A DNA stretch of 35,897 nucleotides from an archaeon. Lineage in GTDB: Archaea; Nanobdellota; Nanobdellia; Pacearchaeales; GW2011-AR1. A model generated the notes under the pieces. The model was not told the origin of the DNA and ran no database searches. It worked only from the letters and a program-made list of their open reading frames with translations. Below are positions 17,658 through 28,964 of the stretch, piece by piece; within the stretch, counting starts at the first letter, position 1; the number at the start of each line of letters is the position of its first letter. A program made the position numbers and the translations under genes. The stretch covers positions 1 to 35,897 of the forward strand of contig DAOWDJ010000006.1 of NCBI GenBank assembly GCA_030639065.1. The letters are read 5' to 3'.

Positions 17658-18974
17658 TTATAACCCTTCGTCAACCTTCCTAATCGCAGTTGGTGCCTCT
17701 CCGCCATGCCAGGTAAATCTCGGTCTAACTCTCATTGGATAAATTCTTTCTGAATTATCATCTAAAATAATTGCCGAACCTTTTAGTCGAGGTAATCCAT
17801 TCAACTTCGAAGAAATACTTGAATGCATATAACTTTGAGTAATGTCATTTAAGGCATCGACATCTAGCTTTGCCGTAACCCTGTGTAAAATAACTATATC
17901 TGACTGAGTCATAGCATCCGTATGAATTTTCCCAGGCTGTTGAGTTGCCATAACCATTGAAACACCTGGCTGTCGCCCCTCTCTCAGTAACTGCACCAAT
18001 GCATCTGTAGATGGAGTTTTCCCAACAGATTCATGAGGCAAAAATTCGTGAGCCTCATCTATAAATATCCAGACCAACGGCATTTCCCTCTTAACTCGAT
18101 ATCTCGCATAATCCGCTCCATGTTGCACAGCCTGAATTTCTTCGTCTTTCCTCGACGCCATTCTCTCATTAAAAATCTTTTTCGAAACTAACCCAATAAT
18201 TAAAGCCCTGACATTAAAAGCTCCAAGTGAAGCATACATAGATAAATCAATCACGGTAGTCTGACCGGCAGAAATCAACTCACGAACCAAGGTTCCTTTT
18301 TCCTCATCAAAAACTTTCCACGTTCTAGCCGCATCAAATAAAGCCGTAGCAGAATTTTTAACTTCTTGTTCAACATTTTCAACACGATTAATTAAACTAT
18401 AAATATCATCGAAACTAAAACCATTCTTAGTCTCCCTCAACTCACTAATCACAGACTCCATTATAACCGCTATCGGATCAGTAAATTTCAACTCAAAAAG
18501 TGTAACCCAATCCGACGGCTCCAACTCCGAAATCTTAATCGCAAATTCCGCATCAATATCTATCCCCTTATCCTTATACTCTTGATAATAACCAAACGGA
18601 GCAAAAACTTTCATCGGAACATTTTTTGCTTTTAGTTCCCATTCATCCAATAAGTCTTCATCTTTAACATTTTTATATTTCATAGTCCAATAAATTCCCA
18701 TCGTATCAAAAATTACCGACGCTATATTCCCCGACTCTTCAAGTCCCAAATCGGACAACGCTTCCGCCATAGTTCCCATTGTATAACTTTTTCCGCTCCC
18801 CCTCTTTCCAGATATCAAAACAACATGACTCCTAGCAACATCCATATAAATCGGATTAGATAAAGAAGTATAATTTCCCATTGTCACAAAACTCTTCCCA
18901 ATAAAAGCCAATCCTCTATTCCCAAACGTTTTCTTATCGCTATCATTCCTCCCAATAATCACATCAAATGGCAT
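17658..18974 (-). CDS. HerA/FtsK-superfamily (DUF87-type) ATPase (start moved to MPFDVIIG)
   Basis: Barrel-like N-terminus (VIIGRNDSD...GLAFIGK). Walker A SGKRGSGKSYTMG. Walker B WIFIDEAHEFLP. Confidence 0.8.
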   Translation of the reverse strand: MPFDVIIGRNDSDKKTFGNRGLAFIGKSFVTMGNYTSLSNPIYMDVARSHVVLISGKRGSGKSYTMGTMAEALSDLGLEESGNIASVIFDTMGIYWTMKYKNVKDEDLLDEWELKAKNVPMKVFAPFGYYQEYKDKGIDIDAEFAIKISELEPSDWVTLFELKFTDPIAVIMESVISELRETKNGFSFDDIYSLINRVENVEQEVKNSATALFDAARTWKVFDEEKGTLVRELISAGQTTVIDLSMYASLGAFNVRALIIGLVSKKIFNERMASRKDEEIQAVQHGADYARYRVKREMPLVWIFIDEAHEFLPHESVGKTPSTDALVQLLREGRQPGVSMVMATQQPGKIHTDAMTQSDIVILHRVTAKLDVDALNDITQSYMHSSISSKLNGLPRLKGSAIILDDNSERIYPMRVRPRFTWHGGEAPTAIRKVDEGL

Positions 18975-19032
18975 AAAATAAAAACAAAACACAAACTAAT
19001 AAACCTTACGTAATTCAAAACTTCCTAGAAGT

Positions 19033-19252
19033 TACCTCCAAGCTCGCGAATTTGATTTTAGAATTATCGCTAATTAAGAGGATGTATAACAAAGGAGGAT
19101 AGGAGAAGTCCGAAACGAGCTCGTGTAGGTTGTCCAGCCCGAAGGGAAAGGACAGCACGATAAAGCGAAATTTTGCGTAGCGCCAGACGAGCACGAAGTT
19201 GAATGTGAAACATTCAGAATATGGTTTTCTACTTTGCCTCAGCAGAGGTACA
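19033..19252 (+). ncRNA. GC-rich structured ncRNA, best guess a miniaturised RNase P RNA (boundaries uncertain)
   Basis: CR-I-like AGGAGAAGUCCG is at 19101-19112. CR-V-like CAGAAUAUGGUUUUC is at 19215-19229. GAAGUCC (19105-19111) can pair with GGUUUUC (19223-19229) as a P4-like helix. Nested helices are GCUCGU 19119-19124 / ACGAGC 19187-19192 and GUCC..CCC-GAA-GGG..GGAC 19132-19153, plus the hairpin GAAUGU-GAA-ACAUUC 19201-19215. Confidence 0.4.
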
Positions 19253-19296
19253 CCATTTGGGTGGAAGAGAAATTTCTTTTTTCAAAAGAAAGAAAT

Positions 19297-20040
19297 CTAC
19301 CAAATTTTGAAACTAAATCTCTCATTAATAAAAGTTCCATCATTTTTCAAAACTCCAAATACATAACTTTCAACCATAATATCCACTGAACTCGGAATAC
19401 CTAGCTCTGGCTCCATATTAACTTCAGGTGAAGTTTCAGTTACAATCGCAAAATCAAAAATCGGAGGAATTTTTAATTCATTTTTTAAACTATCATAATT
19501 GCTATAATACTCTCCACTCATCTCTTCCAAAGCACTATAAGAAACAACTTGTCTCTCAATAACACTTCCTAATTCACAATTCTCCCTCTCAATATCTTCA
19601 CAACCTTCATCATCAATATCTTCATCACTAAACTCGGGAGAAAATGCAATCCTAAAAGCAGTCTCGCCCTCATGGTCTATATTCAATTTCCAACCACCCG
19701 ACCCAGTTTGCATAAGTCCACAATCAATATCATCCCCTCCTAGTTTCGTTACATGACTTTTGCCTTCAATTATCCTATAACTAAAAATTTCTTCCAATAT
19801 CTTTATAGAAAAACAATCCGCACCCCCAGAACTATCAACTTTCAAAAACATATTAGACAAATTAGTATAAGTTCTCTTTTCAAAAGAATCATGAAGCCCC
19901 GTAAGCACCGAACTAGATAAGGTTGACGAATCAGTAGGTTTCAAAGTACTAAAAAGAAAAAATACAAATCCAGTAAAAAATACAAATGCAATTATCATTT
20001 CAAGATGTGCCGCACCCTTTTTATCCATCAATCCTCTCAT
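19297..20040 (-). CDS. pilin-like protein with a class III signal (KKG/AAHLE)
   Basis: MDKKGAAHLEMIIAFVFFTGFVFFLF has a basic stretch, Gly, Glu at +5 and a hydrophobic helix. TATA TTATATAAAT lies upstream. Confidence 0.5.
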   Translation of the reverse strand: MRGLMDKKGAAHLEMIIAFVFFTGFVFFLFSTLKPTDSSTLSSSVLTGLHDSFEKRTYTNLSNMFLKVDSSGGADCFSIKILEEIFSYRIIEGKSHVTKLGGDDIDCGLMQTGSGGWKLNIDHEGETAFRIAFSPEFSDEDIDDEGCEDIERENCELGSVIERQVVSYSALEEMSGEYYSNYDSLKNELKIPPIFDFAIVTETSPEVNMEPELGIPSSVDIMVESYVFGVLKNDGTFINERFSFKIW

Positions 20041-23664: not shown

Positions 23665-24192
23665 TTAAATACCACTAAAATCAATCACAATATTACCATC
23701 CGCATTTCTCCCCGTATTTTCAACTGCTAATTTATATGGAGTCGGAGCAACATCTAACTGTTTTATTCCAGAAGTTTCATTATTATATCTGATATCCAAG
23801 TCATATTTTAACTCTAACTTAATCATCCAAGGTTTTCCTTTCGTTGTAGTTACATTTATTCTCCCTACCGAAATCGACATATCTTCTTCACTATACATGA
23901 AACTCGAATCCAAAATCCACAAAACGGTGTCTTCTTCCACGTCAATAACTAATGCCCCTTTCCTAATATCTAAATCTATAATACGCCTATTTCCTGCTGC
24001 CCTTAAAACCTCATAAACCTTATTATCAATATTACCTAAAGCTTCAATAGACTGCTCAATCATCGCTTCATCTTTTTTTTCATTTATCTTAGGTAAAGCA
24101 GCTGCTAAAACCAAACCAATAATAGCCAAACCAATCAAGGTATAAATTACAGTCTCAACCCAAATCTGCCCCTTTTTCCTAATCATCCTCAT
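23665..24192 (-). CDS. pilin-like protein, KG/Q...E5 class (start moved to MRMIRKKGQ)
   Basis: RKKGQIWVETVIYTLIGLAIIGLVLAAAL. Confidence 0.62.
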   Translation of the reverse strand: MRMIRKKGQIWVETVIYTLIGLAIIGLVLAAALPKINEKKDEAMIEQSIEALGNIDNKVYEVLRAAGNRRIIDLDIRKGALVIDVEEDTVLWILDSSFMYSEEDMSISVGRINVTTTKGKPWMIKLELKYDLDIRYNNETSGIKQLDVAPTPYKLAVENTGRNADGNIVIDFSGI

Positions 24193-24273
24193 AACTATAA
24201 AATAGAGATTATGTTTATATACTTTCCGAAGAAAATATAGAAGGGTCACAAGACCCAATTTAAAAATAATTAA

Positions 24274-26499: not shown

Positions 26500-26762
26500 G
26501 TGTAGGTCCAACAAGTTGCTCAAATCCACAACCGGGAGGTTACCAATAATCCTCAGTTCTGCGACCCTTTAAGCATCCAAACCTTAACTTAGAGCTGCTT
26601 CGTTCCCGACCTGACTCGATTCATCAAGGCAAGATCAAAAAGGACAAAACCTCAACGTCAAATCAATAACATCGACAGCTTCATCTCACGCCTTGCCTTG
26701 CAGTCCGCCATAAAGCCCATTTGCGAATAGCGAGGGGCTAGCTCGCCGACCTGACCTACTAA
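26500..26762 (-). ncRNA. signal recognition particle RNA (archaeal 7S RNA)
   Basis: The minus strand reads GUCAGGUCGGGAACGAAGCAGC (plus coordinates 26594-26615). This is the conserved helix-8 motif with a GGAA tetraloop. The 5' GUAGGUC (26753-26759) pairs with the 3' GGACCUAC (26502-26509). It is a GC-rich island in AT-rich DNA and ends in a U-rich tract. Confidence 0.85.
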
Positions 26763-26811: not shown

Positions 26812-26892
26812 GCTCACATCGCATAATGGTATTGCACCGCTCTGCTAAGGCGGACCCTTCGGGGTACCCCGGTTCGATTCCGGGTGTGAGCG
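26812..26892 (+). tRNA. tRNA-Ser(GCU): tRNA-Ser, anticodon GCU, no encoded CCA
   Basis: Acceptor GCTCACA/TGTGAGC. Anticodon stem CCGCT/GGCGG with loop CTGCTAA. Long variable arm CCC-TTCG-GGG. T arm CCCGG-TTCGATT-CCGGG. Discriminator G. Confidence 0.9.
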
Positions 26893-27046: not shown

Positions 27047-28327
27047 CTAATAATCTCTAGTATTTTTATCTAAAAAACCCACAAGTGCAATCCCTTCTTT
27101 GTCGCCTGCCACCTTAAAACACTCTCTTGCACCATATTTTCTTTGCCAGCTATTATCACTTCGTAGAGCCATATTTCCCATTCTTTTCGCATCATCCTTC
27201 ATCCCCGCGAAAACATAATAATTAGCAGCTTCATCATATCCCTCTTTTTCCTCTGCTATACTAGCCGCCCTCAAAGCCTTATCAGCTGGGATTCGGGTTT
27301 TTATCATCTCGTAAAGCTTTCCAAATTGTGAGACATTGGATCCAACTTTCGCAAAATCTTTTTCTTCAAGTAAATTATTCGCATATTGCGCTATTCTCTT
27401 TTTTGCTTCTTTTACACTATGCTGTGATAAATAATCGAATGCTATTTTAACTGATGACATTATACTCCCAGGAGAATATGAATCTCTTGCGCTTTCAATC
27501 TTTGTCGATTCAGATAATATTTGCCCCCCCTTTGCTCTATATTCCTTTGCACGAATCATTTTACCAGCTCTTTTATATAAACCTAAAGCTTTGTAATACT
27601 CCCCCTGCTCAAAAAATTCATCTCCAAACTCTCTAAAATCTCGAGGAACAAAAGAATGTTTTGTATCATCCATATATTTTACCACTTTATCAAATAACCA
27701 ATCATTTTTTCTTCCATTTATGATACTCTTTGCCTTATCCATTGGCATCATTAAATCTTGACCTTCATAAAAGTTAAAAGCATCTTCAAATCTTCCTTTA
27801 TCCAATGCAATTCCAGAATATTTCTCCCTATCTTCGTCAGATAACTTCTTCCCAGCAACAGCTAAAAATAAAGTCCCCTCTTCGCTCATGCCTTCATTCA
27901 ATAGTTGGTATGCCATCTCCTCTGCTCTAATTACTGCCCCACCTGCATTTAAAGCTCTGGCAGCCCCCCAATAGTCAGAATGTTCTTCAGAGATCATATC
28001 CTCTGCAAGCTCAATAGCTATATGCTTAGGCAATTTATCATGAGCTGTTAATATCCTCAAAAAATCCTTCCCCACTTCCTTCTCCTCATTAGAATCACCA
28101 TGAAAATAAGAAACTCCAAACTCAAGAATCTTATCCCAGTTTTGTCCAAAAAATAAATAATGAGCAGCCGATTTAAAATCTCCCCTGAGAAATGTTTCCT
28201 CACCAGCCTTAAGATAAATCTCTGAAATTTGATCTGCAGGAAACATTGACATATCAATAGAATTCTTCCGCTCAAATTCTTTCGATCTTTCAACCAAAAC
28301 ATTTACGATTCCTTCTAAGTTTCCCAT
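27047..28327 (-). CDS. helical-repeat (TPR/Sel1-like) protein, hypothetical (start moved to MGNLEGI)
   Basis: Recurrent G-x-[FY]-x-x-A-x-x-[FY]-[YLF] motifs: GDFKSAAHYLFFG, GRFEDAFNFYEG, GEYYKALGLYKRAG, GYDEAANYYVFAG. Confidence 0.55.
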   Translation of the reverse strand: MGNLEGIVNVLVERSKEFERKNSIDMSMFPADQISEIYLKAGEETFLRGDFKSAAHYLFFGQNWDKILEFGVSYFHGDSNEEKEVGKDFLRILTAHDKLPKHIAIELAEDMISEEHSDYWGAARALNAGGAVIRAEEMAYQLLNEGMSEEGTLFLAVAGKKLSDEDREKYSGIALDKGRFEDAFNFYEGQDLMMPMDKAKSIINGRKNDWLFDKVVKYMDDTKHSFVPRDFREFGDEFFEQGEYYKALGLYKRAGKMIRAKEYRAKGGQILSESTKIESARDSYSPGSIMSSVKIAFDYLSQHSVKEAKKRIAQYANNLLEEKDFAKVGSNVSQFGKLYEMIKTRIPADKALRAASIAEEKEGYDEAANYYVFAGMKDDAKRMGNMALRSDNSWQRKYGARECFKVAGDKEGIALVGFLDKNTRDY

Positions 28328-28458
28328 AATAAAAAACAAACATAATCTCAATTTATAATAAAATGTATTCTCTATTATATATATTATAAATAATCACTTT
28401 TGTAACCCCTAGAACATGAATCCAAAAACTTTATAACCTTCAAATACCACTATTATTT

Positions 28459-28545
28459 GTTCAACTTCGGTTGAATATGCTTGGCTTCGGTTAAGTATTG
28501 GGAAGTTAAACAGCTTCGGTTTTTTAGCTTCCCTCTTTTTATTTT
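28459..28545 (+). ncRNA. candidate small RNA built of three consecutive cUUCGg-capped hairpins
   Basis: TATA ctttataac 28429-28437 lies about 25 nt upstream. H1 28460-28475 is TTCAAC-TTCG-GTTGAA. H2 28477-28498 has a 9-bp stem with G.U pairs. H3 28500-28533 is GGGAAG...AGC-TTCG-G...CTTCCC. The T-rich tail is TCTTTTTATTTTTTAT. Confidence 0.5.
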
Positions 28546-28620
28546 TTATCTCTGTAATTAAACAAATAAAAACATGAAACTTTTCCAAAATTTCTTTTTT
28601 TATTTTAAATTACCCAAATC

Positions 28621-28628
28621 CTTATAAA
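28621..28628 (+). promoter_or_regulatory. TATA box cttataaa about 25 nt upstream of the ATG at 28650
   Basis: Consensus position and sequence. Confidence 0.55.
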
Positions 28629-28649: not shown

Positions 28650-28964
28650 ATGGAAAAAGAAATCGGAAAAATTCAGAAAGGGGAATACCAGGGAACTATA
28701 ACAGAAATAGTTATAGGAATTAAAGAATACAATGGGAAAACAGGAATAGATATCAGAGAGTTCACCCAGAGTGAAGCCTACACTGGACCTACAAAAAAAG
28801 GATTAAGAATTCCTGCCGACAAATTTGAAGAATTTAAGACAATGATTAATTCTATTGACAATGCAGACTTGATTTCTGAACGGCCAGAACAAACTGCATT
28901 AAAAACAGAACCATCTGAAACCGAAAACGACGATGCAGGAATTAATGAAGAAGGATTAATGTAG
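28650..28964 (+). CDS. PC4/YdbC-like ssDNA-binding fold protein with an acidic tail (tentative)
   Basis: The pattern GKTGIDIREF....GPTKKGLRIPADKFEEFKTMINSI resembles PC4/YdbC-family proteins. Recognised by eye only. Confidence 0.5.
   Translation: MEKEIGKIQKGEYQGTITEIVIGIKEYNGKTGIDIREFTQSEAYTGPTKKGLRIPADKFEEFKTMINSIDNADLISERPEQTALKTEPSETENDDAGINEEGLM

Follow-up and report, generated by a model that had tools for sequence, protein, structure and literature searches.

In bacteria, the sponge RNAs CsrB/CsrC and RsmX/Y/Z present GGA motifs in single-stranded loops, where they are bound by CsrA or RsmA. Also in bacteria, OLE RNA, a molecule of ~600 nt with complex junctions, is encoded beside oapA, an adjacency comparable with that of tmRNA and smpB. 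In type III toxin-antitoxin systems, the ToxI RNA is made of direct sequence repeats with pseudoknots, is transcribed from the toxin's promoter and is cut by the toxin ToxN. Among archaea, the Hgc RNAs of Methanocaldococcus and Pyrococcus are small, stable and promoter-driven, and most of them proved to be H/ACA or C/D guides; the archaeal H/ACA sRNAs can carry one to three consecutive hairpins in a small transcript.

The locus described here resembles each of these systems in part. It lies in a 35,897-nt stretch of archaeal DNA (hereafter the window; contig DAOWDJ010000006.1 of assembly GCA_030639065.1) with a G+C content of ~34%, whose sequence is present in cold-seep and marine-sediment metagenomes; among the close homologues of the neighboring proteins are some labelled Nanoarchaeota or Candidatus Pacearchaeota. 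Comparison with related loci shows that it is an independent gene on the plus strand, with a two-part promoter and an oligo-T terminator, for a predicted non-coding RNA of ~80 nt. Moreover, this predicted RNA belongs to a family of modular RNAs, found in Pacearchaeota-type DPANN archaea, with no counterpart in Rfam 15.

Three UUCG-capped hairpins in a 322-nt spacer

The spacer holding the RNA extends over 322 nt, from a minus-strand orphan gene (27047-28327) to a plus-strand PC4-like gene (28650-28964). In this spacer, a TATA box (ctttataac, 28429-28437) precedes three plus-strand hairpins joined by linkers of a single T each (28476 and 28499). Hairpin 1, TTCAAC-TTCG-GTTGAA (28460-28475), has 6 bp and can lengthen to 8 bp (28458-28477). 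Hairpin 2, ATGCTTGGC-TTCG-GTTAAGTAT (28477-28498), has 9 bp including three G.U pairs, whereas hairpin 3 (28500-28533) comprises 15 positions with one C.U mismatch, a purine-rich 5' arm, a G+C-rich base and a tip formed by the conserved AGC-UUCG-GUU. An oligo-T termination tract, tctttttattttttat, follows at 28534-28549. Each loop is a UUCG closed by a C-G pair, with CUUCGGUU common to the three hairpins, and the 8-mer CTTCGGTT is found four times in the window, where 0.72 occurrences are expected; three of the four lie within the array. The initial annotation had described the TATA box, the three capped stems with single-nucleotide gaps, the shared 8-mer and the T-rich tract, and all of these are present, its coordinates being off by 1 nt.

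Folding of the plus-strand RNA gives -31.3 kcal/mol (z = -6.3), with none of 200 shuffled sequences equally stable, whereas the minus strand of the same region stops at -13 kcal/mol (z = -2.0). Elsewhere in the window there is no further cluster of adjacent UUCG-capped hairpins. An isolated 9-bp cUUCGg hairpin, TATATTTTC-TTCG-GAAAGTATA, is found on the minus strand at 24218-24239, at the 5' end of a pilin-like ORF (23665-24258).

Promoter and ends of the predicted transcript

The region upstream of the array shows two conserved elements at fixed positions. The TATA box is preceded by a purine-rich BRE-like stretch (aAGAAAG), the two together forming aaaaaCTTTATAAc (28424-28437; consensus in relatives, aAGAAAGCTTTATAA). 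Farther upstream, an element with the sequence TGTAACCCC (28401-28409, plus strand) was recognized by aligning ~19 relatives at a fixed offset from their TATA boxes, which gives the consensus TGTAAYYCC. This element begins 28 nt ahead of the C of CTTTATAA, at roughly -55 from the predicted RNA start, and it may be the binding site of a regulator. A single match to the composite pattern TGTAAYYMC-N16-20-YTTTATAA is present in the window, where none is expected, and the combination of box and TATA has 11 exact matches among the related loci, every one of them at the promoter of a hairpin-array RNA.

The distance between promoter and hairpins is nearly invariant. Eighteen stand-alone copies have a recognizable TATA box, and in 17 of them 21 nt separate the start of TTTATAA from the start of the covariance model described below, which corresponds to 24 nt to the first stem base; in the other copy the spacing is 22 nt. 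Because of this fixed distance, and considering the usual archaeal spacing between TATA box and start site, transcription is predicted to begin at 28458-28460, which would place the RNA 5' end at hairpin 1 or 1-2 nt before it, ~25-27 nt past the center of the TATA box. At the other end, a run of four or more T starts a few nucleotides past hairpin 3 in most relatives. The T-run is absent after hairpin 3 in several relatives with a longer fused form, so read-through would be possible there. For the window copy, the predicted length of the RNA is about 80 nt (78-90 nt).

Covariation and conservation among relatives

Relatives of the locus were collected through the neighboring PC4-like protein, which retrieved 80 metagenomic loci, 73 of them with at least 200 nt of DNA upstream of the gene. 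The same RNA lies directly upstream of the PC4-like gene, on the same strand, in 41 of these 73 loci and in 28 of the 33 where the PC4-like protein is at least 70% identical to that of the window. Many loci show two to nine TTCGG loops within 330 nt 5' of the gene and essentially no CCGAA. The RNA family is also found in the NCBI assembly GCA_030605415.1, and helices and tip are kept while the PC4-like protein diverges down to ~60% identity.

A MAFFT alignment of 19 copies, folded by RNAalifold, returns the same three hairpins, with compensatory double changes in 16 of 26 pairs. The covariance model derived from this alignment (R1) found 34 distinct copies with E < 2e-5. In the window it has a single plus-strand match, a full one at 28456-28538 (96.3 bits, E ~1e-17), a score that is circular because the model was built partly from that sequence; the covariation in the remaining 33 copies is free of this circularity. 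Over the 34 copies, 97.8% of the stem cells pair, against 83% in shuffled alignments and at most 64% with slid partners; these pairing statistics rest on a model-fitted alignment, and the independent MAFFT alignment and the strain variants agree with them. Compensatory double changes are present in 21 of the 26 pairs, distributed among the modelled pairs as 6/6 in hairpin 1, 5/7 in hairpin 2 and 10/13 in hairpin 3. The cells with double changes number 134 against 33 expected, a value that none of 500 shuffles reached.

The stems contain 148 G.U cells against 4 A.C cells, which indicates that the plus strand is the folded RNA, as had been proposed from the G.U pairs of the window copy. Also, nine stem variants occur in co-occurring strains of the source metagenomes, and pairing is kept in all nine. 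For example, T28478C together with A28497G converts a U-A pair of hairpin 2 into C-G, and hairpin 3 shows A28504G with T28529C and changes at 28526, 28527 and 28531. No reading frame is open across the homologues, which range from 61 to 87 nt. Thus, the fixed-distance promoter, the T-run, the covariation, the G.U bias and the lack of a conserved ORF strongly support the earlier proposal of a self-contained plus-strand RNA gene, and the comparison suggested with it, a search of relatives for homologous and covarying spacers, gave a positive answer. The pattern of change points to selection on the helices and the hairpin tips, not on the stem sequence.

The related loci add up to 328 kb, and the 37 clusters of adjacent UUCG- or UNCG-capped hairpins found in them are all on the strand of the PC4-like gene and members of the hairpin-array family, which is far above chance. 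DNA-level searches gave no further members: among the matches listed for the three-loop pattern across genome contigs there are only tandem coding repeats of unrelated bacteria, which is uninformative on distribution, and the hairpin-3 tip pattern in viral contigs recovered two coding repeats and no RNA.

A modular family with a variable number of hairpins

The three-hairpin architecture proposed initially holds for the window but not as a trait of the family, since the transcripts of relatives carry 2, 3, about 6 or 9 hairpins. The two-hairpin forms, scored by a direct hairpin scan of the 328 kb, correspond to hairpins 2 and 3. Locus L200 has two such copies 2.1 kb apart, the second of which does not precede a PC4-like gene, and the two-hairpin copies of L175 and L199 are also away from it. 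At the other extreme, in L136 (2185-2448) three tandem three-hairpin units, with nine UUCG hairpins in total, stand behind a single TATA box and are joined by UCUUCAUACUC linkers without T-runs. This nine-hairpin array is a natural valency variant.

In a sister module, unit A, the first hairpin is extended, the second is the same and the third has GGAGAG/CUCUCC arms, which enclose a nearly invariant loop of ~22 nt (GGAGAG-AGGUGACGUAAAAAAUCUGUA-CUCUCC) carrying an SD-like AGGUGA. Unit A is found in L126 (807-915), L138 (1417-1525) and eight other loci. The sequence UUUYAUACUCAAG joins it to the 5' side of the three-hairpin unit, or else, in L138, it stands alone before the PC4-like gene. The window has no copy of unit A.

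Stem sequences drift within the family, whereas the loops and the tip of hairpin 3 are largely kept. UUCG loops are present in 26 of 28 scored copies of hairpin 1 and in 33 of 34 copies of both hairpin 2 and hairpin 3. Of 34 copies, 24 retain the hairpin 3 tip AGC-UUCG-GUU and 31 have a G.U pair beside its closing C-G, and the repeated tip motif can be written as R-R-C-UUCG-G-U-Y. The identical context of the three loops, from which a multivalent protein-binding RNA had been proposed, is confirmed in the window but is not invariant in the family, where one lineage (L131/L140, 2412-2493) carries the loops UUAG, CUCG and CUCG. The variable arm of the tRNA-Ser of these organisms bears a UUCG cap too; in L131/L140 this cap is UCCG instead of UUCG, and two of the RNA loops show the same U-to-C change. 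The window copy combines the features that recur in the family, namely its own TATA box at a fixed distance, at least two adjacent covarying cUUCGg hairpins, a purine-rich 5' arm in the last hairpin and an oligo-U end.

Comparison with described RNA classes

Searches of the window with Rfam 15 at the gathering thresholds gave no match on the hairpin-array RNA, and at E ≤ 10 only unrelated eukaryotic models with E > 2 were recovered, in line with the early impression that no standard RNA has this architecture. There was likewise no match on the hairpin-array RNA of six related loci at E ≤ 0.1, and none for positions 18950-19350 of the window at E ≤ 1. We found no description of such an RNA in the literature, and nothing similar is reported in the RNA-seq study of N. 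equitans (PMC3491384).

Individual RNA classes were also considered on their defining features. For 5S rRNA, the RF00001 model gives no match, no helix closes the 5' and 3' ends, there is no loop C or loop E sequence, and the fold consists of three independent hairpins whose number varies. Of 208 complete Nanobdellota genomes, just three to five have no ordinary 5S gene recognized by Rfam (bioRxiv 10.64898/2026.05.13.725050). An H/ACA sRNA was rejected because there is no pocket, k-turn or ACA box, the stems are continuous except for one mismatch and the tail is UCUUUUUAUUUU; a C/D box sRNA, because neither the C box RUGAUGA nor the D box CUGA occurs in 28456-28549. A sponge of the CsrB/Rsm type would expose GGA motifs in loops, and the loops here are almost all UUCG. 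The antitoxin RNA of a type III system is incompatible with the downstream gene, which is of the PC4 family with its own TATA box and not a ToxN/AbiEii-type endoribonuclease. The defining features of RNase P, of a k-turn and of a triple helix between the U-tail and the purine arm are missing. Finally, the arms of hairpin 3 resemble SD and anti-SD sequences, a likeness that was discarded because the arm sequence varies (GGGAAG, GGAAGG, GAGAGA and others), and possible pairing between the U-tail and the A-rich beginning of the PC4 mRNA was put down to low-complexity coincidence.

Genomic neighborhood and the PC4-like gene

The gene downstream of the RNA (28650-28964, plus strand) encodes a 104-residue protein of the PC4/Sub1 family of single-stranded-DNA-binding proteins (Pfam PF02229, E = 1e-9; E = 5e-5 against PC4 chains of the PDB). 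Over 700 close homologues exist, part of them under the name Nanoarchaeota or Pacearchaeota, and 45 columns are invariant among 30 sequences with 69-86% identity to the window protein. This protein may be the SSB-like protein of the lineage. Its C-terminus is a conserved acidic tail, DDAGI(D/N)E(E/Q)GLM, recalling the partner-recruiting C-terminal tips of bacterial SSB. The gene has its own TATA box (TTATAAA, 28622-28628) 22 nt ahead of the ATG, which implies a leaderless mRNA, and a TATA box 22-29 nt before the ATG is kept in all related loci, including those without the RNA.

On the upstream side, tRNA-Ser(GCU) (26812-26892, plus strand) is the immediate neighbor of the RNA in many relatives, and the SRP RNA gene detected by Rfam (26503-26758, minus strand) is part of the same conserved cluster of RNA genes. 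The comparison indicates that the ancestral order is SRP RNA (minus strand), tRNA-Ser(GCU), hairpin-array RNA and PC4-like gene (the last three on the plus strand). The 426-residue orphan gene inserted between tRNA-Ser and the RNA in the window is found in the window genome only, and its product has no Pfam, NCBIfam or PHROG match; several relatives have little or no coding DNA at this place. In other loci the tRNA-Ser is at 70 to 1500 nt, inverted or absent, and different protein genes occupy the flank in L206 and in GCA_030605415.1. Despite these changing upstream flanks, the distance from the RNA to the PC4 start codon stays between 40 and 120 nt across loci. This linkage, like the variable number of hairpins, was missed in the initial annotation.

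Strains of the source metagenomes were observed that do not have a 61-nt A+T-rich stretch (28536-28596; joints 28535 to 28597) between the T-run and the PC4 promoter, which means that the spacer of the window (111 nt) is longer than the usual 42-60 nt. Also, in the close relatives L152, L154 and L158 the tRNA-Ser lies directly before the PC4-like gene and there is no hairpin-array RNA at this place, suggesting that the RNA is dispensable at that site or is encoded elsewhere.

Possible function and alternative explanations

Nearly all the nucleotides of the predicted RNA would be paired, leaving no single-stranded seed for antisense targeting, and its ends would be locked in helices, for which resistance to exonucleases is expected. 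The repeated tip motif and the variable number of units would allow several copies of one tip-recognizing protein to be held, and the stand-alone copies away from the PC4-like gene (L175, L199 and the second copy in L200) would fit a role in trans. From the repeated tip, the variable unit count, the full pairing and the locked ends, we infer a multivalent protein platform, the conserved tip together with the variable unit number being what favors protein binding. Under this reading, to which we would give somewhat less than an even chance, the RNA would be long-lived and act in trans, as a multivalent platform or sponge whose protein partner recognizes capped helix tips. However, cUUCGg loops are usually structural caps and not sites of protein recognition. 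The same cap in the variable arm of tRNA-Ser raises the possibility that UUCG is just the helix cap preferred by the lineage, in which case the loops may be conserved only because helices have to be stable in an A+T-rich genome. Likewise, the UUAG and CUCG loops of one lineage and the absence of the RNA at the PC4 site in L152, L154 and L158 argue against the platform.

Because adjacency to the PC4-like gene is the most stable feature of the locus, its product is the first candidate for the partner protein. The narrower proposal that the RNA is the dedicated partner of the adjacent PC4-like protein, which is nested within the platform model, seems distinctly unlikely at present. If it were true, several PC4 dimers would sit on the repeated tips, and an SSB-like protein could be stored, titrated or delivered in this way; the RNA would thereby regulate a protein of genome maintenance, and the number of hairpin units would set the capacity of the RNA.

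The alternative that survives best, although rather unlikely in our opinion, is that the array is a cis module of the PC4-like gene. Here, a strong distal promoter would make a hairpin-array leader that mostly stops at the T-run, with the small RNA as a by-product or in dual use. Read-through would yield a PC4 mRNA with a very stable 5' end, or else termination near the PC4 TATA box would tune that promoter through attenuation, mRNA stabilization or promoter hand-off. The constant strand and the distance of 40-120 nt to the ATG in 41 loci are what this model would expect, and L122, L125, L157, L166 and L178 have no run of four or more T between the RNA and the PC4 TATA box. Moreover, insertions and rearrangements occur upstream of the RNA and hardly ever between it and the PC4-like gene; nonetheless, this spacer is a short and constrained target, so the absence of insertions there is weak evidence. 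Against the cis module, the PC4-like gene has its own TATA box in all loci, even those without the RNA, a strong T-run ends most copies, and copies without a PC4-like gene behind them exist in L175, in L199, whose following ORF lies on the opposite strand, and in L200 (the second copy).

An RNA product without function is improbable. The array would in this case be a terminator or insulator between strongly transcribed RNA genes and the PC4-like gene, or a neutrally expanding hairpin repeat, and indeed hairpin 3 with its U-run resembles an intrinsic terminator, the number of units grows and shrinks (as in L136) and the element is lost in some relatives. However, archaeal termination requires only oligo-T, and a dedicated two-part promoter at a fixed distance would be needless for an insulator. 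Strong purifying selection on three separate helices and on the tip sequence also speaks against this reading, as does the fact that the element is not dispersed, the window having a single copy.

Two further explanations are nearly excluded. A reduced or rearranged universal RNA (5S rRNA whose helix I is capped, RNase P RNA, a guide of the H/ACA or C/D type, or a piece of rRNA) would agree with the position in a housekeeping cluster with SRP RNA and tRNA-Ser, and three helices with 1-nt linkers could in principle form a three-way junction; nevertheless, the failure of Rfam to place the RNA at E ≤ 10, the lack of a helix closing its ends and a hairpin number that varies from 2 to 9 make this very improbable. 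Even less credible is a DNA element whose single-stranded or cruciform hairpins would be recognized by the adjacent ssDNA-binding PC4-like protein, since the 148 G.U against 4 A.C stem cells show that only one strand pairs, and promoter and terminator frame the folded part exactly.

Whatever its partner, DPANN archaea have some of the smallest cellular genomes, and nonetheless many DPANN lineages keep this promoter-driven structured RNA, some of them in several copies. Such retention implies an unrecognized function in organisms that cannot yet be grown. The family adds a well-supported archaeal member to a catalogue of structured RNAs dominated by bacteria, and the covariance model finds it easily.

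Relation to known systems

The hairpin-array RNA is similar to the multi-hairpin archaeal H/ACA sRNAs in having consecutive hairpins within one small transcript. However, each of those hairpins has a k-turn or k-loop and opens into a large internal pocket, with an ACA on its 3' side, whereas here there are near-perfect helices with tetraloops and no ACA. The Hgc RNAs resemble it as small and stable promoter-driven archaeal RNAs that were recognized by their structure in A+T-rich genomes, although the hairpin-array RNA has none of the boxes or pockets of the guides that most of them proved to be. With the ToxI/ToxN systems, the locus shares repeated RNA units, a terminator and a small protein gene on one strand. 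Nonetheless, its units lack the direct sequence repeats and pseudoknots of ToxI, and the PC4-like protein, unlike ToxN, is no endoribonuclease but a highly conserved ssDNA binder of housekeeping type, whose gene has a promoter of its own. The adjacency to the PC4-like gene is comparable with that of OLE RNA and oapA or of tmRNA and smpB, pairs in which a structured RNA and a protein gene on the same strand stay together through rearrangements; the RNA is much shorter than OLE RNA with its complex junctions, and its partnership with PC4 is hypothetical. Finally, CsrB/CsrC and RsmX/Y/Z differ from this archaeal RNA in the single-stranded GGA loops that CsrA/RsmA bind, replaced here by closed UUCG tetraloops, but they are alike in being stand-alone small RNA genes with their own promoter and terminator, in which a variable number of hairpins with freely covarying stems presents one repeated tip motif.
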